Part shown: positions 14,809-59,377 of the stretch, in pieces
Numbering within the stretch: position 1 is the stretch's first letter
Layout of the letters: each line of letters starts with the position of its first letter
Source: a phage
Strand: one strand, 5' to 3'
DNA length: 64,000 bases
Sequence record: PZ027503.1
Position numbers and translations under genes: made by a program
The notes under the pieces: model-generated
Databases searched by the model: none
What the model was told of the DNA's origin: nothing
What the model saw: the letters and a program-made list of their open reading frames with translations, nothing else

Positions 14809-16833
14809 TTATCGTGTTACAACAACCATGTCCACGACATTACCCACACCAGGATACGTTAATTGCAAAATTGTTACTGCGTTAGCAGTAGTTGCTATTT
14901 CTGTATCATTCAGTGCTCCATAAGACGCATCTAGTGTAACCGTGTGTCCCGTTGTATCTTGAATCAAATAAATCATTGCTGAAAACGCTTTAGGCTTTGT
15001 AGAGCCAGTGACACCAGGCCATGCTCCAACTGTTAAAGCATCTGTTACTGTAACAACATACATATTGGAAGTTCCAGAAGGAGTCCAAGATGCTCCAGAG
15101 TTGGCAGTAGTTGTTTCAAGTTCCATGAAACCTGCTGTAACTTTAGTTGGTGTTATAGCTTCCGTAGGATCTGATCCTGATATTTCAATCCAGTTACCAT
15201 CAGAACGACCATACGTCAAGCCATCTTGAGGGGCTTCTGGTATACTAGGAAGAGTTCCTATAAGTGTCCACGTAGAAGAATCTGTTTTCTTGAACACTGC
15301 TCCAGTGGTAGTATTGAAGGCGTAATCATTGATAACACCGTCTCCTGCGACTGGATTAGTTGTTGCTACAAACCACTGTGCGCCGTCCTTACCGTTGGTC
15401 CCATCAGTACCGTTGGTTCCGTTTGTTCCAGGATCACCCTTATCTCCTTTATCTCCTTTTTCACCTTTGTCGCCTTTAATACTTCCCATGTCAACAAAAG
15501 ATGCGGAATTGGTGTCTTGATCGTAGGTATAGATGTAAAGATTACTAGTGTCTTCAGTTAAGTAGGCATCACCATAGTTATTATAAACAGGGAGAGCTTC
15601 ACTGTTCGGAACATGACCTTTAGCTGTAATTGATGTTCCTCCAAGACTGCCAACATTCATCCATTCCGTAGCATCTTGAATCCAAACATACAAATCATTA
15701 TTAATTTTATATGCATCACCTACTTCTCCAGTAGGAGGAAGTTCAGCTTCACTGTTCAGAACCCCGATAATCTCTAAGCCTGATCCTGTTGCACCCACTG
15801 GTCCTTGTGGACCTAGTTCACCTTGTGGACCTCGCTCTCCTTGATCACCCTTGTCTCCTTTTGGACCTTTAAGTGAGGCAATAAAATCTACTTCTGTCCC
15901 TTCATTACCAGCATCCAGCCAACTTTGATATGCAGATTTCCCTTCATCTCCATCTGTTCCATCAAGACCGTCTTTACCTGCCTCACCTTGTGGACCTTGA
16001 GGACCAACAATATTACCCATGTTGACCCAAGCTGTCCCATTAGAGACATAAAGATTACCATTGATAGAATAAGCTTGACTTACGTTTTCAGAGTTTGGTT
16101 GTGGTAAGTTACTTGTAGAAGGCAAATCCCCACGATAATCAAAACCGTTGGCGTTAACACCAGGTGCTCCCTGTGGCCCTGTAGGACCAACATCGCCTTT
16201 ATCACCTTTTATAGAGGTAAGAAAATCATAAACAGATCCTGTATTACCATCTGCCAACCATACCTCGTAAGCTGATTTACCTTCTGGCCCAAGAGAAGAA
16301 ATAAGTTTCCAAACAGAACCATCCCAAGCGTAGATTACATCACCTACGATATAACCATCCCCTGCAACGTTACCTGTGGATGGTAGTTCACTAGTGCTTG
16401 CTAATGATCCTTTAATATTAAGTTGAGCACCAGTATCCCCTTTCAAAGAAGCAAGCCATTGTGCTTCTGTTCCAACAAAACCATTATCAAGTGCGATCTG
16501 ATAAGCCGATTTACCAGCTTCAGGTATTGTTTCCGACAGATCATCAATCTGTTGCTGCATTGCCGTAAACTTGGCATTGATAATTGCTATATCATCAGCG
16601 GTCCCAACACTTTGCCATGCAAGGGAAGAAATACCACCTGTGGTGGCTGGCGTAGAGTTTGCTGGAACTACTTTAGGAAAAGTTCCTTTCCATTGGTAAT
16701 AATTCCCTTCTGCTGCTAACAGCAAAACTTCACGGGAATTACGTAATGTAAAACCTGCCTCAAAGCTGCGACGTTTTCGATAAGTAGCTTCTACCAGATC
16801 GGCTATCGCACTATTAGGTCTTGTTAAATTCAT
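14809..16833 (-). CDS. tail fiber protein with collagen-like Gly-X-Y repeats
   Basis: 674 aa; GDKGEKGDKGDKGDPGTNGTNGTDGTNGKDG, GPQGPQGEAGKDGLDGTDGDEG, GPKGDKGDQGERGPQGELGPQGPVG. Confidence 0.75.
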   Translation of the reverse strand: MNLTRPNSAIADLVEATYRKRRSFEAGFTLRNSREVLLLAAEGNYYQWKGTFPKVVPANSTPATTGGISSLAWQSVGTADDIAIINAKFTAMQQQIDDLSETIPEAGKSAYQIALDNGFVGTEAQWLASLKGDTGAQLNIKGSLASTSELPSTGNVAGDGYIVGDVIYAWDGSVWKLISSLGPEGKSAYEVWLADGNTGSVYDFLTSIKGDKGDVGPTGPQGAPGVNANGFDYRGDLPSTSNLPQPNSENVSQAYSINGNLYVSNGTAWVNMGNIVGPQGPQGEAGKDGLDGTDGDEGKSAYQSWLDAGNEGTEVDFIASLKGPKGDKGDQGERGPQGELGPQGPVGATGSGLEIIGVLNSEAELPPTGEVGDAYKINNDLYVWIQDATEWMNVGSLGGTSITAKGHVPNSEALPVYNNYGDAYLTEDTSNLYIYTYDQDTNSASFVDMGSIKGDKGEKGDKGDKGDPGTNGTNGTDGTNGKDGAQWFVATTNPVAGDGVINDYAFNTTTGAVFKKTDSSTWTLIGTLPSIPEAPQDGLTYGRSDGNWIEISGSDPTEAITPTKVTAGFMELETTTANSGASWTPSGTSNMYVVTVTDALTVGAWPGVTGSTKPKAFSAMIYLIQDTTGHTVTLDASYGALNDTEIATTANAVTILQLTYPGVGNVVDMVVVTR

Positions 16834-50847: not shown

Positions 50848-51144
50848 TTAGATTACGATCTTTTTAGGAACGTCATCTGTATTCTGCACGGCAGGGGTTT
50901 CTTCTTCCATAGCTTCATAATGTTCTTCTAACCATTCTTCTACTTGCTCTTTAATAGCTTTAGCTGCTTGGAAGCGGAGAGGTTTTGCTGCATCCTTATC
51001 ATTAACAAGTTCAACAATATACCGCATAGCTTCTAAATAATGCTCTGCAAATAATTCTTTTACACTTGCTTGCGCCGCATCCATTGCGTAAATCTGTTGC
51101 ATTTCGGCTGTTGGTCTTCCACGACCACGTTTTAGTTTAGGCAT
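50848..51144 (-). CDS. hypothetical DNA-binding protein with AT-hook-like motif (98 aa)
   Basis: N-terminal KRGRGRP motif; acidic C-terminus. Confidence 0.45.
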   Translation of the reverse strand: MPKLKRGRGRPTAEMQQIYAMDAAQASVKELFAEHYLEAMRYIVELVNDKDAAKPLRFQAAKAIKEQVEEWLEEHYEAMEEETPAVQNTDDVPKKIVI

Positions 51145-51209
51145 AATAAAATCCTCCTAAACTTTATCTTAACATATAAAAAATAATAAGTCAAGTTTTA
51201 TTCAATATA

Positions 51210-51236
51210 TAGCAAAAAGCCTCCAATAAGGAGGCT
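51210..51236 (-). terminator. rho-independent terminator closing the tRNA array
   Basis: AGCCTCC-AATAA-GGAGGCT hairpin followed on the minus strand by TTTTTGCTATAT. Confidence 0.5.
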
Positions 51237-51351
51237 AATAAATACTGTTAATTTGAAATGCTTTATTATAATTGTGCGTTAAGGAGTCGCACCCCTCCAT
51301 CTTAGAAGGAACCAGGCAAGGTCTTCAAAGATACCGCTGGCAAGCGATATT

Positions 51352-51430
51352 TGGAGGCGGGAATTGGATTTGAACCAATGATCTCCAGCATATGAAACTG
51401 GCGAGGACGACCAGACTCCTCTATCCCGCT
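51352..51430 (-). tRNA. tRNA-Met or Ile2 (anticodon CAT)
   Basis: Manual fold: anticodon stem CCAGT/GCTGG, loop TTCATAT, T-arm ATTGG-TTCAAAT-CCAAT, encoded CCA; A1:C72 mismatch. Confidence 0.5.
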
Positions 51431-51436
51431 ATTAGG

Positions 51437-51506
51437 TATCCCGTGCTGGATTCGAACCAGCATCACAATAAGTTGTGGAACTCTTATCCTGTAAGTCTAA
51501 CGGGAA
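51437..51506 (-). other. degenerate tRNA-like element
   Basis: T-arm GCTGG-TTCGAAT-CCAGC and acceptor-like pairing but no canonical anticodon arm and no CCA. Confidence 0.3.
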
Positions 51507-51508
51507 AT

Positions 51509-51582
51509 TGGTTGTTTCGACAAGAATCGAACTTGTGTCTCACGATTATCAGTCGTGGGTTCTACCATTGAACTACGAAACA
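51509..51582 (-). tRNA. tRNA-Ile (anticodon GAT)
   Basis: Manual fold: perfect acceptor TGTTTCG/CGAAACA, D-stem GTTC/GAAC, anticodon stem CACGA/TCGTG loop CTGATAA, T-loop TTCGATT, CCA. Confidence 0.65.
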
Positions 51583-51588
51583 TTAAAT

Positions 51589-51665
51589 TGGTCGGAATTG
51601 CAGGATTCGAACCTGCGACCCTACGCTCCCAAAGCGTATGCTCTACCAAACTGAGCTAAATTCCG
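51589..51665 (-). tRNA. tRNA-Pro (anticodon TGG)
   Basis: Manual fold: acceptor CGGAATT/AATTCCG, D-stem GCTC/GAGC, anticodon stem TACGC/GCGTA loop TTTGGGA, T-arm GCAGG-TTCGAAT-CCTGC, CCA. Confidence 0.65.
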
Positions 51666-51670
51666 TTATA

Positions 51671-51746
51671 TGGCTGGTCTGTCTGGATTTGAACCAAACC
51701 TACGACAGTCAAAGTGTCGTGTGCTACCTGACTACACTACAAACCA
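51671..51746 (-). tRNA. tRNA-Gln (anticodon TTG)
   Basis: Manual fold: anticodon stem CGACA/TGTCG loop CTTTGAC, T-loop TTCAAAT, CCA; D-stem pairing imperfect. Confidence 0.55.
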
Positions 51747-51844
51747 ATAAATCATTTAATGAAGGGCAACCAGAAGAGGTGTGAGAGAAGGAGAAAACCA
51801 TGAGTAAAAGAGAAAGTTTTCTGGCAACCCTTTATTAAATAATT

Positions 51845-51918
51845 TGGAGCGTTCTACGAGGATCGAACTCGTGCCGCCGACTTGGAAGGACGGAATGCTA
51901 CCGCTACACCAAGAACGC
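51845..51918 (-). tRNA. tRNA-Gly (anticodon TCC)
   Basis: Manual fold: acceptor GCGTTCT/AGAACGC, anticodon loop CTTCCAA, T-arm ACGAG-TTCGATC-CTCGT, CCA; one anticodon-stem mismatch. Confidence 0.55.
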
Positions 51919-51929
51919 CCTACATCTTT

Positions 51930-51959
51930 ACTATACTACATTTTACTATTGGTTGTCAA
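51930..51959 (-). promoter_or_regulatory. sigma70-like promoter for downstream tRNAs (minus strand)
   Basis: TTGACA - 18 nt - TATAGT read on the minus strand; ends about 12 nt upstream of tRNA-Gly 5' end. Confidence 0.55.
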
Positions 51960-52232
51960 TAGTTTTATTGAGTGGGACAGTGACGAGTATCCCATTGGGT
52001 GACTAGCCCTACGTTCGGTAAGCTAACTTAAAATAATACAAAACCAAAGTCAAATATTATTCTTCGTTGCTGTCGATGGGAGAGCCGCTTCTTCTTTTGC
52101 CCCATCCAACCCTACTCCGGTCAAGTTTCAGGTGACTCTTTGTGTGATCAACACAATACTAAGAACACTGTCTTTCGAACAGACCTTGTGCACAGGATAC
52201 GACGATCAATCACAGTGCCCTTAATGTTATGT

Positions 52233-52307
52233 TGGTGCTCCCACTCTGAATCGAACAGAGATCCACGGATTACAAAACCGTTGTAATAGCCATTATACTA
52301 TAGGAGC
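52233..52307 (-). tRNA. tRNA-Thr (anticodon TGT)
   Basis: Manual fold: acceptor GCTCCTA/TGGGAGC, anticodon loop TTTGTAA, T-arm CTCTG-TTCGATT-CAGAG, CCA; U31:U39 mismatch. Confidence 0.5.
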
Positions 52308-52313
52308 AAAACT

Positions 52314-52390
52314 GGGACTCGGCAGGATTCGATACCTGCAATTCCAGAAGCCTCTTGGCGACTGGGGGTTTACCTTAACTCTACAAGTCC
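52314..52390 (-). other. degenerate tRNA-like element
   Basis: Acceptor-like pairing GGACTTG/CGAGTCC and T-arm with 8-nt loop TATCGAAT but no canonical anticodon arm, no CCA. Confidence 0.3.
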
Positions 52391-52397
52391 ATAATTC

Positions 52398-52483
52398 TGG
52401 CGATGAGTATAGGATTTGAACCTATATCGTTCTTTCGAACACGGATTAACAGTCCGCCGCTTAAACCATTCAGCCAACTCATC
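52398..52483 (-). tRNA. unusual tRNA: Asn-type anticodon arm (GTT) in a class-II body with 15-nt variable region, G73
   Basis: Manual fold: perfect acceptor GATGAGT/ACTCATC, anticodon stem GCGGA/TCCGT loop CTGTTAA, variable hairpin GTTC-GAAA-GAAC, T-arm ATAGG-TTCAAAT-CCTAT, CCA. Confidence 0.45.
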
Positions 52484-52489
52484 TTAATT

Positions 52490-52577
52490 TGGTGGTGAGT
52501 GATGGAGTCGAACCACCCGAATCGCAATGATAACAGATTTACAGTCTGCCCCGCTACCCCTACGGAATTAACTCACC
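52490..52577 (-). tRNA. tRNA-Tyr (anticodon GTA)
   Basis: Manual fold: acceptor GGTGAGT/ACTCACC, anticodon stem GCAGA/TCTGT loop CTGTAAA, long variable arm, A73, CCA. Confidence 0.6.
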
Positions 52578-52707
52578 TAAATACTAATATTTAAATTCTT
52601 TTTAAAATAGCCAGTGTTCACACCACTAACTATGAGTTATCGGTAAAGTGGTTACCGCCACTTGCCGAAGATTTACTCTGCTAAAGTAAGCTATATTAAA
52701 AAGAACT

Positions 52708-52793
52708 TGGCGGTAGATGTAGGACTCGAACCTACACGCCGTTTCCGACTACAGTTTAGCAAACTGTCGTGGCTACCATTTCACCAATCTACC
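52708..52793 (-). tRNA. tRNA-Ser (anticodon GCT)
   Basis: Manual fold: acceptor GGTAGAT/ATCTACC, D-stem GTG/CAC, anticodon stem ACAGT/ACTGT loop TTGCTAA, long variable arm, T-arm GTAGG-TTCGAGT-CCTAC, G73, CCA. Confidence 0.65.
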
Positions 52794-52798
52794 TAATC

Positions 52799-52889
52799 TG
52801 GCGGAAGGAGGGAGAGTCGAACTCCCAAGGCTCTTTCAAGCTCGGCGGTTTTCAAGACCGTTTTCGTCGCCACGTCGATTTGCCCTTCC
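52799..52889 (-). tRNA. tRNA-Ser (anticodon TGA)
   Basis: Manual fold: acceptor GGAAGGG/TCCTTCC, anticodon loop CTTGAAA, long variable arm, T-arm GGGAG-TTCGACT-CTCCC, G73, CCA; D-arm irregular. Confidence 0.5.
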
Positions 52890-52897
52890 ATACTTAT

Positions 52898-52927
52898 AAT
52901 CTAACATAAAATAATGTTAGTTGTCAA
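52898..52927 (-). promoter_or_regulatory. sigma70-like promoter inside tRNA array (minus strand)
   Basis: TTGACA - 18/19 nt - TTAGAT/TAGATT; about 10 nt upstream of tRNA-Ser(TGA) 5' end. Confidence 0.45.
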
Positions 52928-53123
52928 TAGTTTTTTAAAACATTTTACCATGAATGGTGACTCCACCAACCCCCGTTCTCAACGAACGGTGCTCTTCGAG
53001 CATTTATGTCTTCTAATATAACCGTGGCCTTTGTTTATAATGTCTGACATACTTGCCTCATTCTCTGCCACCATGATCAGTAGTGGGTTCAAATCACTTG
53101 AGCTAATTCATGTTAAAATGTTC

Positions 53124-53198
53124 TGGTGTCTTTACAAGGAATCGAACCTTGACTAAGAGTTTAGAAGACTCCTGTGCTATCCATTACACCATAAAGAC
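53124..53198 (-). tRNA. tRNA-Arg (anticodon TCT)
   Basis: Manual fold: acceptor GTCTTTA/TAAAGAC, D-stem GTGT/GCAC, anticodon stem GGAGT/ACTCT loop CTTCTAA, T-arm CAAGG-TTCGATT-CCTTG, CCA. Confidence 0.65.
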
Positions 53199-53200
53199 GT

Positions 53201-53275
53201 TGGTGGCCCTGGCTGGTTTCGATCCAGCTACCTATCGGTTATGAGCCGACAGCTCTCCCATTGAGCTACAGGGCC
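53201..53275 (-). tRNA. tRNA-Met (anticodon CAT)
   Basis: Manual fold: acceptor GGCCCTG/CAGGGCC, D-stem GCTC/GAGC, anticodon stem GTCGG/CCGAT loop CTCATAA, atypical T-loop ATCGAAA, CCA. Confidence 0.55.
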
Positions 53276-53484
53276 ATAAATGTGGTAACAGAGACGCTGA
53301 CGATTGTAGAGAACCGCTACATTCTCTAAGACCAAGCCCAACTTTCAGCGTAAAAGTTCTTGAGCCGAGACTATTCCTTTTCCTCTTTGGTAGCTAACCT
53401 CTGAAGAAGTAGTCTCTAACACTACCGCAGTGCAAGCCCCTCTTAACAAAAGTCAACGACCCTGTTACCACACTTGATGAACGT

Positions 53485-53514
53485 ATCCTAACATATGAAG
53501 GATACGTTTGTCAA
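53485..53514 (-). promoter_or_regulatory. sigma70-like promoter at the head of the tRNA array (minus strand)
   Basis: TTGACA - 18 nt - TAGGAT read on the minus strand; followed by about 200-nt leader before tRNA-Met. Confidence 0.5.
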
Positions 53515-53521
53515 TAGTTAT

Positions 53522-53771
53522 TTAAGCATATTCTGCTACCTCTTCACTATCTTTCTTTTCCAGAAGAGCAACAACCAAAGCTTCTGCGTTAAAAGTATTA
53601 ATTTCAAGATCCATCTCTCGCATCAGAGCCAAGAAATCAATAACTTTAACATCTTTAGTGATTACAATAGAAGTTGTACCATTGTTTTCAGATGTGTATT
53701 TTTCTGGATGGAAAAGAAAAACTGCATTGCCGTTACCATCTTCAAACACGTGTTTTTCTAATAGAGACATT
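53522..53771 (-). CDS. hypothetical protein (83 aa)
   Basis: ATG with AGGAGG SD on the minus strand; track ORF extends further upstream without SD. Confidence 0.4.
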
Positions 53772-53778
53772 GTTCCTC

Positions 53779-53994
53779 CTAATCTGTTAGTTGTTCGTCC
53801 TCTACCAAGTTTGACACGAGAACGTCTGTTATACATTGATGCTGATAAACCCTTTCGGGACTATCATCAAAAGCCAAACCTGTGCAAATAGAACAGAGGT
53901 CTGATTCCTTGATGACTCCATTTTTATCACGTCTGGAGTGGTTTGTCAAATGCCTATTACAAGCACGGCACCTAAAATAAAAGCTGTTTTGCAT
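53779..53994 (-). CDS. hypothetical zinc-finger protein (72 aa)
   Basis: CRAC...CSIC; ATG with GAAGGA SD; track ORF extends to 54030. Confidence 0.4.
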   Translation of the reverse strand: MQNSFYFRCRACNRHLTNHSRRDKNGVIKESDLCSICTGLAFDDSPERVYQHQCITDVLVSNLVEDEQLTD

Positions 53995-54067
53995 ATATCC
54001 TTCGAACCCCAAATGGGGAGTGATCGGCATCTCCTCACTTCTAGTTTAGCACGAAGGATATCTTAAG

Positions 54068-54253
54068 TCAACTAGGAATAATTTTATCCTTTTTGGTTTC
54101 ATAACCAGTCCAATCTAAATCCTCCCAGCCTTCATCATCGTCTAACACATTGTCGTCATCATAAGATGCAATGTTATAAATAGAACGTGGATTACAAGAC
54201 ATACAATCTTTAATAGGCACATGATGCCATTTGCACGGATTCTCACTAATCAT
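54068..54253 (-). CDS. hypothetical Cys-rich protein with acidic C-terminus (61 aa)
   Basis: ATG with GGAGG SD on the minus strand; CKWHH..CMSC then DDDNVLDDDEGWEDLD. Confidence 0.4.
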   Translation of the reverse strand: MISENPCKWHHVPIKDCMSCNPRSIYNIASYDDDNVLDDDEGWEDLDWTGYETKKDKIIPS

Positions 54254-54736
54254 TGCACACCTCCATTCTTGTTAAGATGTTCCGTACTGTACTTCATACT
54301 GATCTATAGATCAAGTATTATTTATAATAATTTATTATTTTATTTTTAATTGATAGAAGTTGATCTGTACGTACCAGTTCTGATACACTGTACCTGTTGG
54401 TTAGATCTAATAATTATTTATTATTAATATTTAATAATTATTAATCTAGTACGGAATACAGTACTTGAGTACAGAGTACTACATCAACAACCTTAAAACC
54501 TTAACTCGCTGCGCTCGTTAATAGATTTCTAGGGTAGCATACTTCGAACACAAAAGTCAAGAGTTTTATTAAAAAATTATTTTCTGTGTGCAAAAACCTT
54601 GCTTAAACAGGTAGCAATAGTATAGCCTATAACACAAGCTTCATAAGAGGCTCGTAGAGCAAGTTTACTTACTAGGTAAGGTGATTTATCATCTTATATA
54701 TAAAAAGTGCGTCAGAGACGCGTTTAGGAGGCCAGA
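54254..54736. promoter_or_regulatory. AT-rich divergent intergenic control region with palindromes and GTAC/GATC repeats
   Basis: 483 bp without ORF between divergent operons; palindromes GATCTATAGATC, TTAGATCTAA, GTACGTAC; inverted TTCCGTACT / AGTACGGAA; long AT tracts. Confidence 0.4.
54286..54314 (-). promoter_or_regulatory. candidate promoter for minus-strand gene ending at 54253
   Basis: TTGATC - 17 nt - TACAGT read on the minus strand; weak match. Confidence 0.3.
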
Positions 54737-55060
54737 ATGAGATTTACAAGACAAGAGGTAGTTGTGCTGGACGAAGCAATGACAATGATCGTCTTTTACT
54801 ATGAAGATATCTTCTGTGCAGCATATCATTTAAATGACATTCAGATTGAATGGCAGCAGATAGCATTCCTGTTGGACAAGAGTAATCATTTGGATGGCTT
54901 TGAGTATTTGGAGTGGGATGGTGCAAAGGAAGTTAAAATTGTAGGGTTAAATCACGATCAGATTGTTGACATGCAATGTAAGTTGTGTCATTATCAGTTC
55001 TCAAACAAAGTCAAACTCGAAAGGCAATTGGAGGTGGTTAAAGATGATAGCACTAATTAG
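54737..55060 (+). CDS. hypothetical early protein (107 aa)
   Basis: ATG with AGGAGG SD. Confidence 0.45.
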   Translation: MRFTRQEVVVLDEAMTMIVFYYEDIFCAAYHLNDIQIEWQQIAFLLDKSNHLDGFEYLEWDGAKEVKIVGLNHDQIVDMQCKLCHYQFSNKVKLERQLEVVKDDSTN

Positions 55061-55160
55061 TGAGAATCCAGTCCTGACAACAATTGTTCTGATTTTTGCC
55101 ATGTGTGTGGTTCACGATGTTCTGGTAAGTTATTTTGACAACAAAGGAGGTAAGAAATGA
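55044..55160 (+). CDS. hypothetical small membrane protein (38 aa)
   Basis: ATG with GGAGGTGG SD; single TM helix VLTTIVLIFAMCVV; track ORF from 54963 overlaps the previous gene. Confidence 0.3.
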   Translation: MIALISENPVLTTIVLIFAMCVVHDVLVSYFDNKGGKK

Positions 55161-55351
55161 AAGACGTTATTCAAATGGTATTCCGTGTAACTCTAGATGG
55201 TATACACGTTGTTAAAGGCACACAGAACTACACAGAAGCGAAAGAACACTTCTTAGAGTGGATTGATACACTGAAGACACAAGATGTGTCCTACAGCCGT
55301 GTTACGCTTACTGGCGACCATACCCCAATCATGGAGTACGTAAAGAAATGA
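55157..55351 (+). CDS. hypothetical protein (64 aa)
   Basis: ATG with GGAGG SD. Confidence 0.45.
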   Translation: MKDVIQMVFRVTLDGIHVVKGTQNYTEAKEHFLEWIDTLKTQDVSYSRVTLTGDHTPIMEYVKK

Positions 55352-55587
55352 GCAACTATCCAATTACAGGCGTAACCTATTCTTGTGTAGCAAAAGGTGG
55401 TTTATATACGGTAGTGGAATTTCCAAAACCTGCCGGAATATCTAAAGTGTTTGATCCTGTGGTTATCTATGAAGATCTTAGAACAGGTCAACGTTACTGG
55501 AGATTTGTGAATGACTTTTTAGATCGTATGGAGGTAGTAAGTGGCGAAAACACCGAAGAAGTTATCAAAGCCAAAGAACGTTACTAA
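55348..55587 (+). CDS. hypothetical protein (79 aa)
   Basis: ORF track; overlapping start/stop. Confidence 0.4.
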   Translation: MSNYPITGVTYSCVAKGGLYTVVEFPKPAGISKVFDPVVIYEDLRTGQRYWRFVNDFLDRMEVVSGENTEEVIKAKERY

Positions 55588-55894
55588 GAAACCGAAAAAC
55601 GAGGTTCTCAAAGTAGCCAAATCAGTTCCTAAGAAAGATAAATTTGATACGGAGGCATTCGTCTTTGACACACCAATCGAGAAGATTGAAGAAGCGTTGC
55701 AACGTCTTGAGGAGCAGGAGGCAGATCCAATGGCTGAACCACTCACGGCAGACCAAATTTATTGGTGGGGAATATGGACTTTGCAACTGCCAGAAGCAAA
55801 AAGAAGAGGAATGACTTCAGTTCCTACTTGTGCAAAAGAAGCGGCTGTGTTAGGTTTGTATGAGAAATCTAAAAAGAGGAGCAAAAAGAAATGA
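55541..55894 (+). CDS. hypothetical Lys-rich protein (117 aa)
   Basis: GTG with GGAGG SD; N-terminal KKLSKPKNVTKKPKNEVLKVAKSVPKK. Confidence 0.4.
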   Translation: MAKTPKKLSKPKNVTKKPKNEVLKVAKSVPKKDKFDTEAFVFDTPIEKIEEALQRLEEQEADPMAEPLTADQIYWWGIWTLQLPEAKRRGMTSVPTCAKEAAVLGLYEKSKKRSKKK

Positions 55895-56172
55895 TCAAGA
55901 CTTTTCTGAAGTGTGTAAAAGCAACAGATAATGAGTGGTACTCTGGATTATTCACTGCTGGCAAGAAATACGAGATCCTCAACGGAACAGGCAAGAAGTT
56001 TTCTCTTGTTGTAAATGATGAAGGAACGAAGCAAATGGTATTTGCTGAAAGTTCTGTTTATGGTATCTTTGAAGTAGTGCAAGAAGGCTCTCCAATGATT
56101 CTGGAGTATCATGGCACTAATAAACCATATACTGCTATGGATGTTATCAACAACAAGAGGAATGCAAAATGA
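55891..56172 (+). CDS. hypothetical protein (93 aa)
   Basis: ATG with GAGGAG SD. Confidence 0.45.
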   Translation: MIKTFLKCVKATDNEWYSGLFTAGKKYEILNGTGKKFSLVVNDEGTKQMVFAESSVYGIFEVVQEGSPMILEYHGTNKPYTAMDVINNKRNAK

Positions 56173-56351
56173 TTTTACTCTATTCCGGTAAGGCAAAATA
56201 CATGCAAGGTGTTAAACGTGTAGAGGTTACTAAGACAGTAACAATCGGGAAATCTTTTATCGTTTATTATTTCCTTGTTAATGGGAAGGAGTATGCTGTA
56301 GCAAAGACCTTGGTTGATAAGGGTAAAACGTGGAAAGTGGAGGCACTATGA
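56169..56351 (+). CDS. hypothetical protein (60 aa)
   Basis: ATG with GAGGA SD. Confidence 0.4.
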   Translation: MILLYSGKAKYMQGVKRVEVTKTVTIGKSFIVYYFLVNGKEYAVAKTLVDKGKTWKVEAL

Positions 56352-56554
56352 TCCCTATAGCTGGGTGGGTGGTATTGGCAACACTTAATGGGAATGTTAC
56401 TGTGGAGACTAAAACCATCTTCAAAGCACCAGAAGATTGCTATAACTCCTTGGTAACTTGGCCTCGTGATGAAGATGATAAGTCAGAGTATCAGTGTTTT
56501 TACATTGAGGGCAAGCCTGTAGAATTTGAGGTTAAAGTGAAGGAGGAAAAATGA
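56348..56554 (+). CDS. hypothetical protein (68 aa)
   Basis: ATG with GGAGG SD at 56348; the track start at 56330 lacks an SD. Confidence 0.4.
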   Translation: MIPIAGWVVLATLNGNVTVETKTIFKAPEDCYNSLVTWPRDEDDKSEYQCFYIEGKPVEFEVKVKEEK

Positions 56555-57031: not shown

Positions 57032-57376
57032 ATGAAAGTTTGGATAGATGATATGCGGAACCCAGCCGACTATGGACAGGAAGATGCAATTTGGTTTAAA
57101 ACGTCACAAGAAGCTATGGCCTTTCTCAATGATCCTGCTAAACTGTATCGAAGAGTAACCGAGTGGTCTTTTGACAATGATTTAGGTATGGAGTCAGACC
57201 AAGATGGGTATGATGTTTTCCTGCACCTGGAAGAACTTCTGGCGTTTGGTAAACCTTGCTTTGGTTCACCTACCATTTTCGTGCATACTTCTAATCCCGC
57301 CGCTGGGGATAAATTCATGCTTGCAAAAGAATCCATGCAGCGTTATGGTATTAAAATGATTCGTGTGCACTACTAA
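57032..57376 (+). CDS. hypothetical protein (114 aa)
   Basis: ATG with AAGGAGG SD. Confidence 0.45.
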   Translation: MKVWIDDMRNPADYGQEDAIWFKTSQEAMAFLNDPAKLYRRVTEWSFDNDLGMESDQDGYDVFLHLEELLAFGKPCFGSPTIFVHTSNPAAGDKFMLAKESMQRYGIKMIRVHY

Positions 57377-57385
57377 GGAGAGAAC

Positions 57386-57529
57386 ATGCATCATTCGGTT
57401 TGGTCGGAACAAGAAGAGGACGAAGGTTACTTTATCTACAGAGAAGAAGAGGATTGGCCCGACACAAGCAATGATCTTTTACTTCCAGATACTAGTTTTT
57501 TCGAGGATAATTTAAGAGAGGAGGATTAG
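57386..57529 (+). CDS. hypothetical small highly acidic protein (47 aa)
   Basis: ATG with AAGGAGAG SD; about 40 percent Asp/Glu; below the ORF-track cutoff. Confidence 0.35.
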   Translation: MHHSVWSEQEEDEGYFIYREEEDWPDTSNDLLLPDTSFFEDNLREED

Positions 57530-57535
57530 GAAACA

Positions 57536-57892
57536 ATGAGTGGTATTGAAAACAACATTTGTTACCAACCTCTTACCTGGATGGGTGAGGGTCATTATGC
57601 GCAACGTGTTATTGTCTGTGCTGCAAATAAGTATATTTTGAATAATGGCGAAGAGTTAATTATTCCTTGTGTTCGACATGCAAATCCTGTACTATATGCA
57701 CAGTTAAACGTGTTGAAAGAAGCAGGTGTAATCAACAAAACTTTGTGCACACCAGATAATCAAGGCTTTATCGATCAGTATTACAATTGGTGGAGTCGTG
57801 CGGATGCTTACATCATCGCGGAAAATGCTGACCAGATCGACCATGAGCGTAATGGTCACGACCATGAATTATTTAGCGAGGGATTATACTAA
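57536..57892 (+). CDS. hypothetical protein (118 aa)
   Basis: ATG with GAGGAGG SD. Confidence 0.45.
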   Translation: MSGIENNICYQPLTWMGEGHYAQRVIVCAANKYILNNGEELIIPCVRHANPVLYAQLNVLKEAGVINKTLCTPDNQGFIDQYYNWWSRADAYIIAENADQIDHERNGHDHELFSEGLY

Positions 57893-58443
57893 TGTTTATT
57901 ACAAGCGATTTGCATTTTATGCATAAACGCATTCGAGAGTTTGCTCCTGAATATCGTCCGTGGGAAGATATGGACCACATGACAGAAGCCTTGATCGAAG
58001 CATGGAACAAATGTGCTACTACCCCTGGTGTTAAGATGTGGCATTTGGGCGACTTCTGTTTCGGGACTGAAGAAGATACCCGTAAGATTGCTTCCCGTCT
58101 GCAAGGGGATATCACTTATCTTGTTGGGAACCATGATTACAGCAAGCACCGAGAAGTGCTTGCAGAGTATGGCGAAGTGGTGTATTATGACGAAGTGAAA
58201 TACCAGAAGCTGTTCTTCGTCTTAAGTCATTACCCTATTGCCTCCTGGAATAAACAAGGTCGTGGATCAATCATGCTACACGGGCATTCCCACGGATCTT
58301 TCCCTGATGAAGCTTATGGTAAAATGTTAGATGTGGGTTGGGATGCACACGGAAAAATCTTGCATTTTGATGAGATAATTTCTATGATGAGTAAACGAGA
58401 TATCGTGACTGTAGACCATCACAAAATAATCAAAGGAGAGTAA
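57892..58443 (+). CDS. calcineurin-like metallophosphoesterase (putative RNA 2',3'-cyclic phosphate / 3'-phosphate healing phosphatase)
   Basis: Motifs SDLHF (DxH), LGDFCFG (GD), VGNHDY (GNHD), LHGHSHG (GH). Confidence 0.6.
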   Translation: MFITSDLHFMHKRIREFAPEYRPWEDMDHMTEALIEAWNKCATTPGVKMWHLGDFCFGTEEDTRKIASRLQGDITYLVGNHDYSKHREVLAEYGEVVYYDEVKYQKLFFVLSHYPIASWNKQGRGSIMLHGHSHGSFPDEAYGKMLDVGWDAHGKILHFDEIISMMSKRDIVTVDHHKIIKGE

Positions 58444-58444
58444 T

Positions 58445-59377
58445 GTGACTAAATTTAATTGCGACGATTTGGTTGAAAAAGGTTTAGTTCATAAGAAAAC
58501 ATATAAAGAAGGAGAGTATTCTGGTCTATCTATTCTTAAGTATAAGAACAAAGTTTTCTGGGATAACTTATGGAGCATTGATTCTCGTCTTCTAGAATGT
58601 CGCGGAATCGTTGTTGATGCTGATGACAATGTTGTTATTTGGCCTTTCACTAAGATTTTTAATCGTTTTGAGAATGGCACAGATCTACCAGCGGATGAAC
58701 TTGTAGATGTGGTTCGTAAAGTAAATGGTTTTATGGCCTCTGTAGGTGTATATAAAGGTCAACTTATTGTATCGACAACAGGAAGCCTTGAATCAGATTT
58801 TGCAAGTATTGCAAAGAATCATATTGTTTCAGAGTGCGATGACATAGAACATTTCATCAAATGGGCAGAGAGTGCAAAAGCAACTTTCCTGTTTGAAATC
58901 TGTGATCCTTCTGATCCACATATTGTCGAAGAAGAACCAGGTGCATACTTAATTGGTGCCAGAATTCAAAATCCTGATGGGACAAGTTTTATGTTACCTG
59001 AAGGTGCTCTTGATGGAATTGCTTCTGTCACCAAATTTAAGCGTCCTGAAGTTCATCCAATGGTTAAGTTTTCAGATGTTGTTGAAATGTCTAAACATTG
59101 TAAACACGAAGGGTTTGTAGTTCGTGAAACAAACTATCCGTTCAACTTACTTTTAAAAATTAAATCACCACACTATCTTACTAAGAAGTTTCTTATGCGT
59201 GGTGGAGATAAAAAGTGGGATCTGATTTGGGATAATCCAAAAAATGCCAAACAAATTGTTGACGAAGAATATTACGCTTTGTTAGAATGGATTCGAAATA
59301 ATTTTACGAAGACTCAATGGGCTGCTTTAAATCAGCAAGAGCGACGTGAAAAAATCGAAAACTTCTTTGGAGGATAA
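58445..59377 (+). CDS. RNA ligase (T4 Rnl1-like)
   Basis: Nucleotidyltransferase motif I RKVNG, motif IV EGFVV, motif V LKIKSPHYL (compare T4 Rnl1 FKIKSDHYL as recalled); GTG start with AAGGAGAG SD. Confidence 0.6.
   Translation: MTKFNCDDLVEKGLVHKKTYKEGEYSGLSILKYKNKVFWDNLWSIDSRLLECRGIVVDADDNVVIWPFTKIFNRFENGTDLPADELVDVVRKVNGFMASVGVYKGQLIVSTTGSLESDFASIAKNHIVSECDDIEHFIKWAESAKATFLFEICDPSDPHIVEEEPGAYLIGARIQNPDGTSFMLPEGALDGIASVTKFKRPEVHPMVKFSDVVEMSKHCKHEGFVVRETNYPFNLLLKIKSPHYLTKKFLMRGGDKKWDLIWDNPKNAKQIVDEEYYALLEWIRNNFTKTQWAALNQQERREKIENFFGG

Follow-up and report, generated by a model that had tools for sequence, protein, structure and literature searches.

A probable bidirectional early-transcription control region in a phAPEC8-like phage

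The 483-bp non-coding region that separates two divergent genes of a Phapecoctavirus (54254-54736 of the 64,000-nt stretch analysed here, hereafter the window) is probably the main bidirectional early-transcription control region of the phage, with four to five interleaved promoters of the host sigma-70 type. Phages of the phAPEC8-like and phi92-like groups are common therapeutic candidates, and no mapped promoter or origin was found for them in the literature: our search returned no mapped transcription start site for any member of the subfamily and no transcriptome data for the genus, and for termini, origin, promoters and methylation in the genus it returned terminal-repeat statements alone. 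The layout described below maps the putative control region in concrete terms and names predicted start sites that are open to experimental test. The original prediction, which had set an origin, a genome end or packaging site, or a regulator-binding array on top of divergent early promoters, is supported in part, in that the promoters gain support whereas the genome end or packaging site does not.

Genomic context

The window comes from a Phapecoctavirus (phAPEC8-like, a 150-kb myovirus) and is 99.6% identical to Escherichia phage ETEC-TG. Because the ~150 Phapecoctavirus records are 95-99% identical to it, conservation among these relatives weighs little; the cross-lineage comparison used five other genomes (phiWec188, phiWec179, phi92, FKP3 and Tr1) from four other lineages of the subfamily. 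The first leftward gene (54068-54253, minus strand) encodes a 61-aa acidic, Cys/His-rich protein, and the first rightward gene (54737-55060, plus strand) a protein of 107 aa. The region had been called free of open reading frames, which holds for frames of at least 60 aa, but two overlapping short ones (42 and 46 aa) touch it. Early blocks had been assigned to both sides; the minus-strand block, however, is not purely early, as it proceeds from three small ORFs and 10 tRNA genes to lysis, terminase and structural genes.

ARAGORN places all tRNAs at 51352-53275 and none inside 54254-54736, and Rfam covariance models gave no match on either strand of 53400-55400 with E up to 1. Pfam and PHROGs matches among 17 neighbouring proteins comprise a Toprim/DnaB helicase, a family A polymerase and a cREC_REC domain, and include no initiator or DNA-binding annotation. 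When the region was compared by blastn-short with the complete genome of a relative, no second copy of any element came up, just chance matches of 11-17 nt; the same search pointed to a second TAGGGTAGCAT site. The other divergent junction in the genome is a plain 117-bp pair of back-to-back promoters. One relative's record labels part of 54254-54736 solely as 'repeat_region'.

Candidate promoters and their layout

We looked for hexamers near TTGACA and TATAAT, with A2 and T6 present in the -10 hexamer and 16-18 bp between the two. Four such pairs (PL1, PR2, PL2 and PR3) lie in the region, and three of them, within 275 bp, rank 33, 38 and 45 among the ~128,000 scored positions of the window. 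The features, from left to right, are as follows.

54280-54293, no strand: left GTAC pair TTCCGTACTGTACT, overlapping the PL2 -10 hexamer and start region; left arm of an inverted repeat with the right array
54286-54314, minus strand: PL2 candidate promoter, TTGATC-17-TACAGT; -35 TTGATC at 54314-54309, 17-bp spacer, -10 TACAGT at 54291-54286; score 10.8, rank 45
54300-54313, no strand: 14-bp perfect palindrome TGATCTATAGATCA with two GATC sites, within the PL2 spacer and -35 hexamer
54315-54350, no strand: AT tract 1, 35/36 A/T, between the PL2 and PR2 -35 hexamers
54360-54389, plus strand: PR2 candidate promoter, TTGATC-18-TGaTACACT; -35 TTGATC, 18-bp spacer with GTACGTAC, extended -10 TGa, -10 TACACT; score 11.2, rank 38
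54401-54448, no strand: TTAGATCTAA palindrome and AT tract 2 (46-bp imperfect AT palindrome), genus-specific
54448-54480, plus strand: AGTAC array of four copies (AGTACGGAATACAGTACTTGAGTACAGAGTACT), five in most relatives; genus-specific
54489-54504, plus strand: tandem repeat of AACCTTAA, present twice here and one to three times in relatives
54505-54517, minus strand: conserved 13-mer CGA-GCGCAGC-GAG, whose core GCGNAGC is a GNA-loop DNA mini-hairpin sequence
54531-54560, minus strand: PL1 candidate promoter, TTGACT-18-TGcTACCCT; -35 TTGACT at 54560-54555, 18-bp spacer, extended -10 TGc, -10 TACCCT at 54536-54531; score 11.6, rank 33
54561-54598, no strand: A/T-rich block (29/38 A/T) between the PL1 and PR1 -35 hexamers, possibly acting like an UP element
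54599-54626, plus strand: PR1, weak candidate promoter, TTGCTT, 16-bp spacer, TATAGC
54664-54692, plus strand: PR3 candidate promoter, TTTACT-17-TATCAT, 17-bp spacer; score 8.5, rank 158; adjoins the rightward gene
54709-54731, plus strand: small conserved stem-loop GCGTCAGAGACGC, then the rightward-gene RBS TAGGAGG

PL2, 32 nt ahead of the start codon of the leftward gene, would fire leftward and PR2 rightward, the two standing back to back with AT tract 1 as upstream DNA common to both. PL1 lies ~270 bp upstream of the leftward gene and faces PR2, whereas PR1 and PR3 would start rightward transcription beside the rightward gene. The predicted starts fall near 54279 and 54523 on the minus strand (PL2 and PL1) and near 54396, ~54633 and 54699 on the plus strand (PR2, PR1 and PR3).

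This layout is kept across lineages. The order PL2, AT tract, PR2, 13-mer, PL1 recurs in phiWec188, phiWec179, phi92, FKP3 and Tr1 with relative shifts of at most ~37 bp, and the hexamers are held at fixed positions while the spacers have diverged. At the PL2 position these five genomes carry TTGAC(T/C)-17/18-TA(G/C)nnT, with scores of 12.0-13.2. PR2 has a positional counterpart in all five, with the TGn extension in four, and the PL1 hexamers are identical across lineages although its spacers differ. In the column-by-column alignment that also covers the AT tracts, 2 of 56 columns vary at PL1. The counterparts of PR3 are TTGACA-17-TATCAT in FKP3 (13.9) and TTGACT-17-TACCAT in Tr1 (12.0). PR1 has a low local score (5.6, in an alternative register), and its phiWec counterpart, TTGTGT-16-TGcTATAGT, reaches 9.1; in phiWec, a 70-aa gene lies downstream of that counterpart. 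The divergent early promoters of the original prediction are supported and refined by the three top-ranked candidates and their conserved arrangement.

In the Schickermooser genome, 21 of 29 early intergenic gaps hold a promoter that scores above 10 in the same scheme; the usual form is TTGACA-16/17-TAnnnT, its -10 hexamer lying ~50 nt ahead of the ATG. For phages of the rV5 type, use of sigma-70 consensus promoters is reported, many of them extended at the -10 (PMC3606486). A stricter consensus scan of 53500-55500 counted 7 promoter-like sites against 7.7 in shuffles, i.e., no excess; PR3 is among the sites it lists. We note as a caveat on the promoter reading that the -35 hexamer (TTGATC) of PL2 and PR2 is imperfect and that PR1 is weak.

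Clustered early promoters for the host RNA polymerase are known from lytic coliphages, among them T7 (A1/A2/A3) and T5. Bidirectional promoter junctions have been predicted for rV5 (PMC3606486). The region resembles these systems in having several strong sigma-70-type candidates within a few hundred base pairs, heading early units at a site of orientation change, with AT-rich upstream DNA and frequent extended -10 elements. Unlike them, its promoters, which are predicted ones, are interleaved and bidirectional, with an inner facing pair (PR2 and PL1) and a genus-specific AT palindrome and AGTAC array.

AT tracts, palindromes and GATC sites

The palindromes, repeats and AT tracts named in the original prediction are all present where it placed them, and in excess of chance. 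GATCTATAGATC at 54301-54312 widens to the 14-bp palindrome TGATCTATAGATCA (54300-54313), and GTACGTAC and TTAGATCTAA occupy 54367-54374 and 54401-54410, the latter (10 bp) just past the predicted PR2 start. Perfect palindromes of at least 10 bp number 5 in the region versus 0.92 expected, a count reached by a fraction of 0.0035 of 2000 dinucleotide-preserving shuffles. In addition, single-stranded DNA of 54270-54500 folds better than 200 of 200 shuffles (z = -4.06). The 9-bp inverted repeat is there as well, its arms TTCCGTACT (54280) and AGTACGGAA (54448) occurring once each in the 64-kb window; however, it is specific to this isolate, most relatives having GTACTGTACT / AGTACAGTAC instead.

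The region had also been described as dense in GTAC and GATC. This is true of GTAC (see below) but not of GATC, of which there are 4 sites per 220 bp versus up to 5 in other windows. Three of the four GATC sites, like the 14-bp palindrome and GTACGTAC, fall within the -35 hexamers or spacers of PL2 and PR2, and GATC or AGATCT is also found in the PL2 spacer of phiWec, phi92 and Tr1.

In A/T content, the 40-mers at 54316 and 54409 (39/40 each), which represent the two long AT tracts, rank highest in the window, and the corresponding tracts of Schickermooser are within that genome's three most AT-rich 40-mers. AT tract 1 has one variable column among 11 genomes, in addition to changes in T-run length; among the five other genomes, all but phiWec179, which is just under the tract threshold, have a single tract of 30-60 bp at the same position. 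From this placement between two -35 hexamers, AT tract 1 would serve as an UP element, contacted by the alpha subunit, for both PL2 and PR2. Shared upstream DNA of two back-to-back promoters accounts for the tract more simply than an unwinding element does.

AT tract 2 is of a different kind. Its arms are 89% complementary with no gap (DNA fold z = -4.18), and as judged from the letters it can form a hairpin or a cruciform. It is missing in the other lineages, which have PR2 32-38 bp closer to the 13-mer. Within the genus it has zero variable columns in 10 genomes, compared with ~3-18% of columns in the other segments of the region; at the region's mean variability the probability of no substitution is ~0.03. 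Like the AGTAC array, AT tract 2 is an addition specific to the genus, in a stretch of ~125 bp that would be transcribed both ways. For phage engineering, the region would mark strong early promoters and possibly an origin, and AT tract 2 and the array, being lineage-specific, may be dispensable.

A GTAC cluster that survives a genome-wide purge

The clustered AGTAC repeats of the original prediction are confirmed by counting: 9 GTAC sites lie in 54284-54479, compared with 0.18 per 200 bp elsewhere in the window (Poisson probability ~4e-13), and shuffling the region 2000 times never produced as many as 9. The window has no denser GTAC cluster, and the counterpart in Schickermooser is likewise the densest of that 151-kb genome (10 sites, with the next-best windows at 6 and then 3). 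The array is located in DNA that PR2 and PL1 would both transcribe, and AGTAC is the most enriched 5-mer downstream of PL1-type modules (9 versus 0.2).

The cluster stands against a strong background of avoidance. GTAC is the most under-represented of the 256 tetranucleotides (147 observed versus 456 expected, 0.32), and the other 14.3 kb of non-coding DNA contains 5 sites versus 31 expected (0.16), compared with 10 in this region alone (477 bp), such that about two thirds of the non-coding GTAC sites are concentrated there. Sister lineages avoid other palindromes (CTAG in phiWec188, 0 versus 76 expected; CATG in phi92, 0.48), which points to restriction avoidance, and escape from restriction enzymes is the most likely cause of the GTAC purge. 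Relatives of the group are reported to be highly restriction-sensitive (PMC8594841). Because GTAC has been kept here despite the purge, we infer that the array is bound by something, or that its sequence or structure is needed. A regulator-binding array is a plausible reading of the AGTAC run, the likeliest role being that of a site for a regulatory protein that would tune the opposing promoters PR2 and PL1. The surviving cluster is in this respect a pointer to a protein-binding site and a handle on the trade-off between restriction avoidance and regulatory sequence. No GTAC-binding protein was identified by Pfam and PHROGs among the 17 neighbouring proteins. In a comparison by eye with host operators, the array fits neither LexA (CTGT-N8-ACAG) nor the TrpR operator.

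Alternatively, AT tract 2, the AGTAC array and the AACCTTAA repeats might be functionless products of hairpin-mediated inverted duplication and replication slippage in an insertion-tolerant leader, the GTAC excess reflecting repeated copying of one AGTAC-containing unit. Several observations are in keeping with such an origin: AGTAC and AACCTTAA copy numbers differ among near-identical isolates (dw-ec, for example, is without 13 bp of the array); the conserved TTAGATCT motif recurs in the outer arms of the palindrome; the right flank reads like an inverted, shortened copy of PL2 (TTAATCTA...TACAGTAC versus TTGATCTA...TACAGTAC, by reading); and the sister lineages have the same promoter layout without AT tract 2 or the AGTAC array. 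However, with GTAC purged to 0.16 in other non-coding DNA, neutral sites should decay, and yet 9-10 persist in nearly all aligned genomes. Furthermore, the GTAC sites at PL2 and in the PR2 spacer are outside the tandem array, and AT tract 2 lacks substitutions, as noted above. We consider a functionless by-product unlikely.

The exception to this persistence is KKP 3954, which tolerates the loss of 7 GTAC sites: GTAC-destroying substitutions affect 4 of the 5 right-array sites and 7 of the 10 sites in the region, so that the tetranucleotide itself may be dispensable. In this genome, the GTAC-destroying changes in coding DNA are 11 synonymous and 7 non-synonymous ones. Base-calling error at modified GTAC was considered as an explanation, and the evidence speaks neither for it nor against it; the purge matches the lineage-specific avoidance of CTAG in phiWec188. 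The record has split genes, which makes its quality uncertain, and a literature search found no paper on KKP 3954.

The PL1 module and its mini-hairpin motif

Downstream of PL1, the 13-mer occupies positions ~6-18 nt past the predicted start on the non-template strand, with the core GCGCAGC at 54508-54514 of the minus strand. Comparison of three Schickermooser copies and five lineages reveals that it is invariant save for the loop, which is C, A, or AT (GNNA), in all lineages examined; this invariance offers no covariation. Sequences of the type GCGNAGC / GCGNNAGC form a very stable mini-hairpin with any N, much stabler as DNA than as RNA, and are known from the complementary-strand origins or priming sites of phages G4, St-1 and alpha3, from RSF1010 ssiA and from the promoters of the N4 virion RNA polymerase (PMC13037366). 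Nearest-neighbour folding gives the 13-mer -2.1 kcal/mol, a value to be read with the reservation that such models miss the stability of the motif (PMC13037366).

The 13-mer shares with these mini-hairpins the exact core, variation limited to the loop and a position at a transcription initiation site. It differs in that it belongs to double-stranded phage DNA and follows closely on a sigma-70-type promoter candidate and, compared with the 5-bp stems of N4 promoters, in having two Watson-Crick pairs plus possible G.A pairs. The PL1 module would in this way present a GCGNAGC motif on its non-template strand just past the start, and the 13-mer may fold into a hairpin in vivo. As for RNA structure in the PL1 leader, a small hairpin before the 13-mer varies between copies and gives no consistent fold.

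The PL1-type module is present in three copies per genome (Schickermooser), each with a GCGNAGC motif. One of these, at 15.07-15.12 kb, is opposed to the local genes and has no convincing downstream gene, whereas the second module copies of the phi92-like and FKP3-like phages directly precede a gene for a small membrane protein. A subfamily-conserved module of this kind, three per genome and with a mini-hairpin motif, may connect transcription with priming.

Transcription-primed replication

The region could also, or chiefly, be a transcription-primed lytic origin like that of T7 or T4 oriF, a possibility that we hold to be real though rather doubtful. In this model, RNA made from PL1 and/or PR2 would enter the easily melted AT palindrome (54402-54448), and the resulting R-loop would prime the family A polymerase; GCGNAGC on the displaced strand could signal entry or priming to the primase-helicase, and the three modules would then be three origins. 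In the primary origin of T7 an AT-rich segment comes after promoters phi1.1A/B, and T4 oriF/oriG combine a middle promoter with an unwinding element downstream of it. The region has in common with them a very AT-rich, easily melted segment within 20-120 nt of a promoter: AT tract 2 begins ~6-13 nt past the predicted PR2 start and ~75 nt past that of PL1, lying between facing promoters as a strong former of hairpins or cruciforms. The replisome encoded in the window is T7-like as well: Toprim and DnaB are fused into one primase-helicase, and the DNA polymerase is of family A. The T7 promoters phiOL and phiOR are gene-less, which the Schickermooser module at 15.07-15.12 kb recalls. The extreme AT content of the locus in the window and in Schickermooser, as well as the use of mini-hairpins at phage and plasmid priming sites (PMC13037366), is in line with an origin too.

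Against this stands the distribution of the parts. The sister lineages lack AT tract 2, their sole AT tract being upstream of the promoters, and the second modules of phi92-like and FKP3-like phages simply precede a small membrane-protein gene. The promoters differ from those of the T7 and T4 origins in being of the host sigma-70 type rather than dependent on a phage RNA polymerase or MotA, and the downstream AT segment, known here from its sequence, is genus-specific. The cumulative GC skew, which had been proposed as a check, has a minimum at the locus, but it turns at all four gene-orientation changes; as it cannot tell replication from transcription, we dropped it as evidence for an origin. 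The same confound of skew and orientation has been pointed out for rV5 (PMC3606486).

Other types of origin fit less well. The AT-rich tracts are present without a cluster of DnaA boxes beside them: matches to TTATCCACA with one mismatch number 21 in the window, which equals the chance total, and none is in 54254-54736. Likewise, the IHF consensus has no site in the region and a window total equal to chance. Iterons of the usual length (direct repeats of 17-22 bp with a nearby initiator gene) are absent from the region, which has only 5-mers at a spacing of 5-12 bp and an 8-mer that occurs twice, and no initiator gene is recognisable. The origins of E. coli (oriC) and of the P1 plasmid have AT-rich repeats beginning with GATC, DnaA boxes and Dam/SeqA control. 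Similar to these, GATCT is found at the edges of AT tracts (e.g., GATCTAATAATTA), and GATC or AGATCT is present at the locus in four of five lineages, this one included; dissimilar are the lack of a DnaA box (at one mismatch) or IHF site, the ordinary GATC count and the three GATC sites of four that the promoters explain.

A more elaborate scheme, which we regard as decidedly improbable, makes the three PL1-type modules the lytic replication origins of Stephanstirmvirinae, each comprising a sigma-70 promoter, TGCTACCCTAA and GCGNAGC on the non-template strand. Transcription by the host would open the DNA, SSB-resistant mini-hairpins formed by the displaced strand would recruit the T7-like primase-helicase, and the Phapecoctavirus copy in this window would have gained an AT unwinding palindrome and an AGTAC array that binds a genus-specific factor for the timing of initiation.

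Genome ends

A role of the region as physical end of the genome or as pac site is very hard to sustain, and we give it next to no weight. Its model is the pac site of P1, in which two clusters of TGATCA/G hexamers surround the cleavage site. The region looks similar insofar as two clusters of short motifs, ~165 bp apart, flank a segment of ~160 bp with GATC sites in between, and the public record of nieznany begins inside it. However, the exact 329-bp direct terminal repeat with which the Schickermooser record ends is 54 kb away, is absent from the window and is without GTAC or GATC. A length of 328 bp has been published for the Schickermooser repeat (PMC6563267), and direct terminal repeats are also reported for other subfamily members (PMC12695924). 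Since the genome has fixed ends of this kind at another place, the locus, unlike P1 pac, is not a packaging cut site.

Public records place the locus anywhere from ~6 kb to ~148 kb, and most record starts therefore look arbitrary. The start of nieznany coincides with a 65-bp internal deletion, a pattern typically seen where an assembly breaks at a palindrome. Deletions within the region occur in the records of both EP57 and nieznany, and these may be assembly faults.

Identity and gene neighbourhood

The 483-bp region studied here (54254–54736) lies between a leftward gene (54068–54253, −) and a rightward gene (54737–55060, +). Window positions 53000–56500 are 99.6% identical to Escherichia phage ETEC-TG and 95–99% identical to ~150 records of Phapecoctavirus, the phAPEC8-like myoviruses of ~150 kb in the subfamily Stephanstirmvirinae. 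As originally predicted, two long gene blocks flank the region, and annotated relatives show them meeting there. The right block (+ strand) consists of about a dozen small ORFs followed by an RNA-repair cluster, DNA ligase, exonucleases, thymidylate synthase and ribonucleotide reductase. The left block (− strand) begins with three small ORFs and ten tRNA genes and runs on into spanin, terminase, portal, capsid and tail genes; it is therefore not simply “early”, as had been proposed. A “repeat_region” annotation covers part of the region in one relative's record, and none of the relatives' records inspected has a promoter or origin annotated there.

The first two leftward ORFs (54068–54253 and 53779–54030, both −) encode small Cys/His-rich proteins, one with a CxxHH...CxxC pattern and an acidic tail, the other with CxxC...CxxC. 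Neither product has a Pfam or PHROG function; both look like zinc ribbons, and could be early regulators or polymerase-binding proteins. On the other side, 57032–59377 (+) is probably an RNA-repair cassette, in which a protein matching cREC_REC (E = 6.5e-17), the receiver domain of cyclic-phosphate processing, is encoded next to genes annotated in relatives as metallophosphatase, RNA ligase and PseT-like ATPase.

Motif content compared with chance

The palindromes, repeats and AT tracts of the original prediction are all present where it placed them, and the first palindrome extends to 14 bp (TGATCTATAGATCA, 54300–54313). Perfect palindromes of at least 10 bp number five, compared with a mean of 0.92 in 2000 dinucleotide-preserving shuffles, 0.35% of which reach five. 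A 196-bp stretch holds nine GTAC sites, where the remaining window averages 0.18 per 200 bp (Poisson ~4e-13), and shuffling the region itself never gave nine; GATC density by itself is unremarkable. No 40-mers of the window are richer in AT than those of AT tracts 1 and 2. In the complete 151-kb genome of the relative Schickermooser, this region likewise contains two of the three most AT-rich 40-mers and the densest GTAC cluster (10 sites per 220 bp; the next windows have 6, then 3). The single-stranded DNA fold of 54270–54500 is better than that of 200/200 shuffles (z = −4.06), and the value for AT tract 2 by itself is z = −4.18. Schickermooser has its second densest GTAC spot at ~34.56–34.78 kb (6 sites per 220 bp), within dTDP-sugar (rml) genes, which could reflect recent acquisition from a host.

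Interleaved promoter candidates

Promoters were scored with a simple sigma-70 weight matrix built on consensus frequencies from the literature; spacers of 15–19 bp were allowed, and an extended −10 TG raised the score. As a check, the matrix gave scores above 10 (10.7–15.0) in 21 of the 29 intergenic gaps of the Schickermooser early-gene array, typically TTGACA-16/17-TAnnnT with the −10 hexamer ending ~46–59 nt before the start codon, in agreement with the promoters reported for rV5 (PMC3606486). Leftward (PL) and rightward (PR) candidates in the region are listed with the neighbouring elements.

Predicted elements of the region (ranks by matrix score)
54314–54286, −, PL2, TTGATC-17-TACAGT, rank 45th
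54315–54350, AT tract 1
54360–54389, +, PR2, TTGATC-18-TGaTACACT, rank 38th
54402–54448, AT tract 2
54448–54480, AGTAC array
54517–54505, −, 13-mer
54560–54531, −, PL1, TTGACT-18-TGcTACCCT, rank 33rd
54599–54626, +, PR1 (weak), TTGCTT-16-TATAGC, supported mainly by its phiWec counterpart
54664–54692, +, PR3, TTTACT-17-TATCAT, rank 158th, also listed by a stricter scan

The ranks of PL1, PR2 and PL2 are among ~128,000 scored positions, and ~0.2 such matches are expected per 275 bp. A stricter consensus scan of 53500–55500 found promoter-like sites no more numerous than in shuffles, and the case for promoters therefore rests on comparison across the subfamily. Several of the original motifs fall within these candidates: the 14-bp palindrome with its two GATC sites occupies the PL2 spacer and −35 hexamer, the third GATC is the PR2 −35 hexamer, GTACGTAC lies within the PR2 spacer, the PL2 −10 hexamer shares bases with the left GTAC pair, and TTAGATCTAA lies 5–15 nt downstream of the predicted PR2 start. 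Promoter-like sites are also scattered through the tRNA cluster (10 genes, 51352–53275) and the preceding small ORFs (51100–54100, −); by matrix score, their −35 hexamers start at 54071, 53514, 52927, 51959 and 51194 (−), and the high-scoring ones read TTGAC(A/T)-17/18-TGnTAnnnT, one of them without the TG.

The homologous junction was taken from five other genomes: phiWec188 and phiWec179, a sister clade with proteins ~80–93% identical to those of the window, phi92 and FKP3 (Justusliebigvirus), and Citrobacter phage Tr1, which has no assigned genus. The intergenic DNA is mostly unalignable across them, and the same scan returned the same elements in the same order, with relative positions within ~37 bp.

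Relative positions of elements in the cross-genome scan
59–68, PL2 −35 hexamer
~56–116, single AT tract (phiWec179 just under the tract threshold)
103–122, PR2 −35 hexamer
215–252, 13-mer
271–307, PL1 −35 hexamer

A strong PR3 counterpart is present in FKP3 and Tr1. Hexamers conserved while spacers diverge are the usual signature of real promoters, which is how we would read this pattern. GATC or AGATCT recurs in the PL2 and PR2 spacers of phiWec, phi92 and Tr1, and the GATC motifs are therefore comparatively supported as promoter parts or overlapping sites. Similarly, TGTTAGATC(T) lies 3′ of PR2 in phi92 and Tr1, in the relaxed form TTGGTTAGATCT in the window and in a looser form in phiWec. 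The −35 hexamers of the back-to-back PL2/PR2 pair are 43–57 bp apart with AT tract 1 in between, so that the tract spans −38 to −60 of both promoters. UP elements act around these positions, and the simplest reading, from position, is that AT tract 1 is UP-element DNA common to PL2 and PR2.

The reading that fits the region best is a conserved hub in which early promoters interleave, an uncharacterised example of a known element type; this reading accounts for AT tract 1, for three of the region's four GATC sites and for the palindromes that contain G/C. The divergent early promoters of the original prediction are upheld by three top-45 candidates and by a layout kept in five other genomes, though not by the stricter scan. 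Between PR1 and PR3, phiWec188 and phiWec179 (loci L003 and L004, 1659–1871) have an extra 70-aa gene, where the window has only ~30 bp of unrelated spacer (54632–54663).

The PL1 module and its putative mini-hairpin

Downstream of PL1 lies the 13-mer CGAGCG-N-AGCGAG, of which the central base alone varies across the lineages examined. The core GCGNAGC corresponds to the GNA-loop “mini-hairpin”, which a recent review describes as extraordinarily stable in DNA form (Tm 70–76 °C for any N), far less so as RNA, and as occurring at the priming sites of G4, St-1 and alpha3, RSF1010 ssiA and the N4 virion RNA polymerase promoters (PMC13037366). The full module, TTGACT-17/18-TG(C/G)TACCCTAA-N10-15-13-mer, with a loop of N1-2, occurs three times in the Schickermooser genome.

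Copies of the module by motif match
Copy 1, the region studied here (PL1), − in the window
Copy 2, Schickermooser 128,590–128,655 (L010, 48590–48655), heading a block that contains replication genes
Copy 3, Schickermooser 15,060–15,125 (L009), antisense to a real membrane-protein gene and against the local genes, with no convincing gene downstream

The loop is AT, forming a GNNA tetraloop, in two of the Schickermooser copies, which a hairpin would tolerate and a spaced protein site less easily. By an unbiased 5-mer count, the 150 nt after the three modules are enriched in TAGAT/ATCTA (14 versus 1.1 expected) and AGTAC (9 versus 0.2). In genomes like phi92 and FKP3, the second copy does no more than precede a small membrane-protein gene. 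The PL1 module would be at least a special class of promoter, in which the putative mini-hairpin may serve transcription, RNA stability or priming. PL1-type copies also occur in a PD06-like locus (L039, 10340–10373) and in L034. The identical 13-mer, CGAGCG[A/G/C]AGCGAG, is found in about two dozen apparently unrelated viral contigs from environmental metagenomes in IMG/VR (loci L023–L025, L028, L030–L033, L036, L041, L045, L048–L051, L055, L056, L058, L060, L064, L066–L069), where it follows TACCCTAT and a C7 run and forms inverted pairs with cores ~50–55 bp apart.

Genus-specific additions and retention of GTAC

The PR2-to-13-mer distance is 116 bp in the window versus 78–84 bp in the other lineages. 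The extra DNA corresponds to AT tract 2, a 46-bp imperfect palindrome whose outer arms reuse TTAGATCT. The AGTAC array is the other genus addition; the window has four copies, where most relatives have five. PR2 and PL1 face each other across both additions, so each of the two would be read from both directions. Schickermooser's other divergent junction (130.3 kb) lacks such additions and consists of two promoters set back to back in a compact 117 bp. Ten genomes of the genus show no variation in any column of AT tract 2, versus ~3–18% variable columns in other segments of the region; at the region's mean variability, the chance of zero in 50 columns is ~0.03. Relatives differ in how many AGTAC and AACCTTAA repeats they carry.

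By second-order expectation, GTAC is the most under-represented of the 256 tetranucleotides in the Phapecoctavirus genome (147 versus 456 expected, ratio 0.32). An approximate gene call, which assigns 90% of the genome to coding sequence, puts the ratio at 0.31 in coding DNA. Non-coding DNA outside the region (14.3 kb) has 5 sites versus 31 expected, a ratio of 0.16, whereas this one 477-bp region has 10 sites versus 3.2 expected, and therefore two thirds of the genome's non-coding GTAC. The GTAC ratio is 0.60 in phiWec188 (L070), where CTAG is absent from 50 kb (76 expected), and 0.85 in phi92 (L071), where CATG stands at 0.48; a different palindromic tetranucleotide is thus purged in each lineage. 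Phapecoctavirus and phiWec188 are also poor in CCGG and GGCC, and phi92 in CCGG. Together with the reported high sensitivity of phages of this group to restriction systems (PMC8594841), the lineage-specific purges point to restriction-site avoidance. Our main argument for taking the AGTAC array as functional is that GTAC clusters here despite the genome-wide purge: an avoided word clustered in freely mutable DNA suggests positive constraint on the array.

GTAC turnover between the window and Schickermooser is almost normal (14%). In phage KKP 3954 (OR067838 60000–109999, L021, compared with window 18812–64000), 24 of the 43 orthologous GTAC sites have changed, mostly to ATAC or GTAT, against 5–11% for ten control tetramers. 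The changed sites include 7 of the 10 in the region, and the overall GTAC ratio of this phage is 0.15. Eleven of the GTAC-destroying changes in coding DNA are synonymous and seven are not, and the record has several split genes; either GTAC was purged strongly and very recently, or the losses are a sequencing artefact at these sites. If the sequence is correct, array function would tolerate AGTAC to AATAC or AGTAT. AGTAT repeats occupy the equivalent place in phi92. The AT palindrome and the purge-resisting AGTAC array, both genus-specific, are probably not neutral. The retention of GTAC and the three-copy mini-hairpin promoter module are worth an experiment.

A possible replication origin, and the genome ends

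Origins of T7 and T4 comprise a promoter followed by an AT-rich unwinding segment, with the displaced strand used for helicase loading. The window encodes a T7-like replisome (a fused Toprim-DnaB primase-helicase and a family A DNA polymerase), and the region has a compatible layout, with promoters, the genome's most meltable DNA and a DNA mini-hairpin motif on the non-template strand; the third module, without a gene, adds to the resemblance. Promoter and AT-rich DNA are thus common to both, but AT tract 2 is confined to one genus, the sole AT tract of the other lineages lies upstream of the promoters, and no DnaA boxes, IHF sites, iterons or initiator gene were found at the region. That the promoter hub additionally serves as a promoter-primed origin appears to us unlikely, though worth keeping in mind. 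The cumulative GC skew of the window has its minimum at ~54 kb; over the full genome, each of the four switches in gene orientation coincides with a turn of the skew (maxima near 17 and 95 kb, minima near 55 and 130 kb). It says nothing about an origin here, the same conclusion as was drawn for the related phage rV5 (PMC3606486).

A genome end or packaging site, also suggested originally, is rejected, because the terminal repeat lies elsewhere and the one record that starts here can be explained as an assembly break. The Schickermooser record has an identical 329-bp direct repeat at its start and end (328 bp according to its authors, PMC6563267), 54 kb from this locus, missing from the window and with no GTAC or GATC; direct terminal repeats are reported at the genome ends of subfamily members (PMC12695924). 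The nieznany record begins inside the region and has a 65-bp internal deletion there too, as if its assembly had broken at a palindrome.

Aligned to window 54230–54760, three public genomes carry deletions: 65 bp in nieznany (L005, 1–505), 40 and 20 bp in EP57 (L015), and 13 bp in dw-ec (L016). Poly-T length and AACCTTAA copy number also differ among public genomes, suggesting a locus that is indel-prone or hard to assemble.
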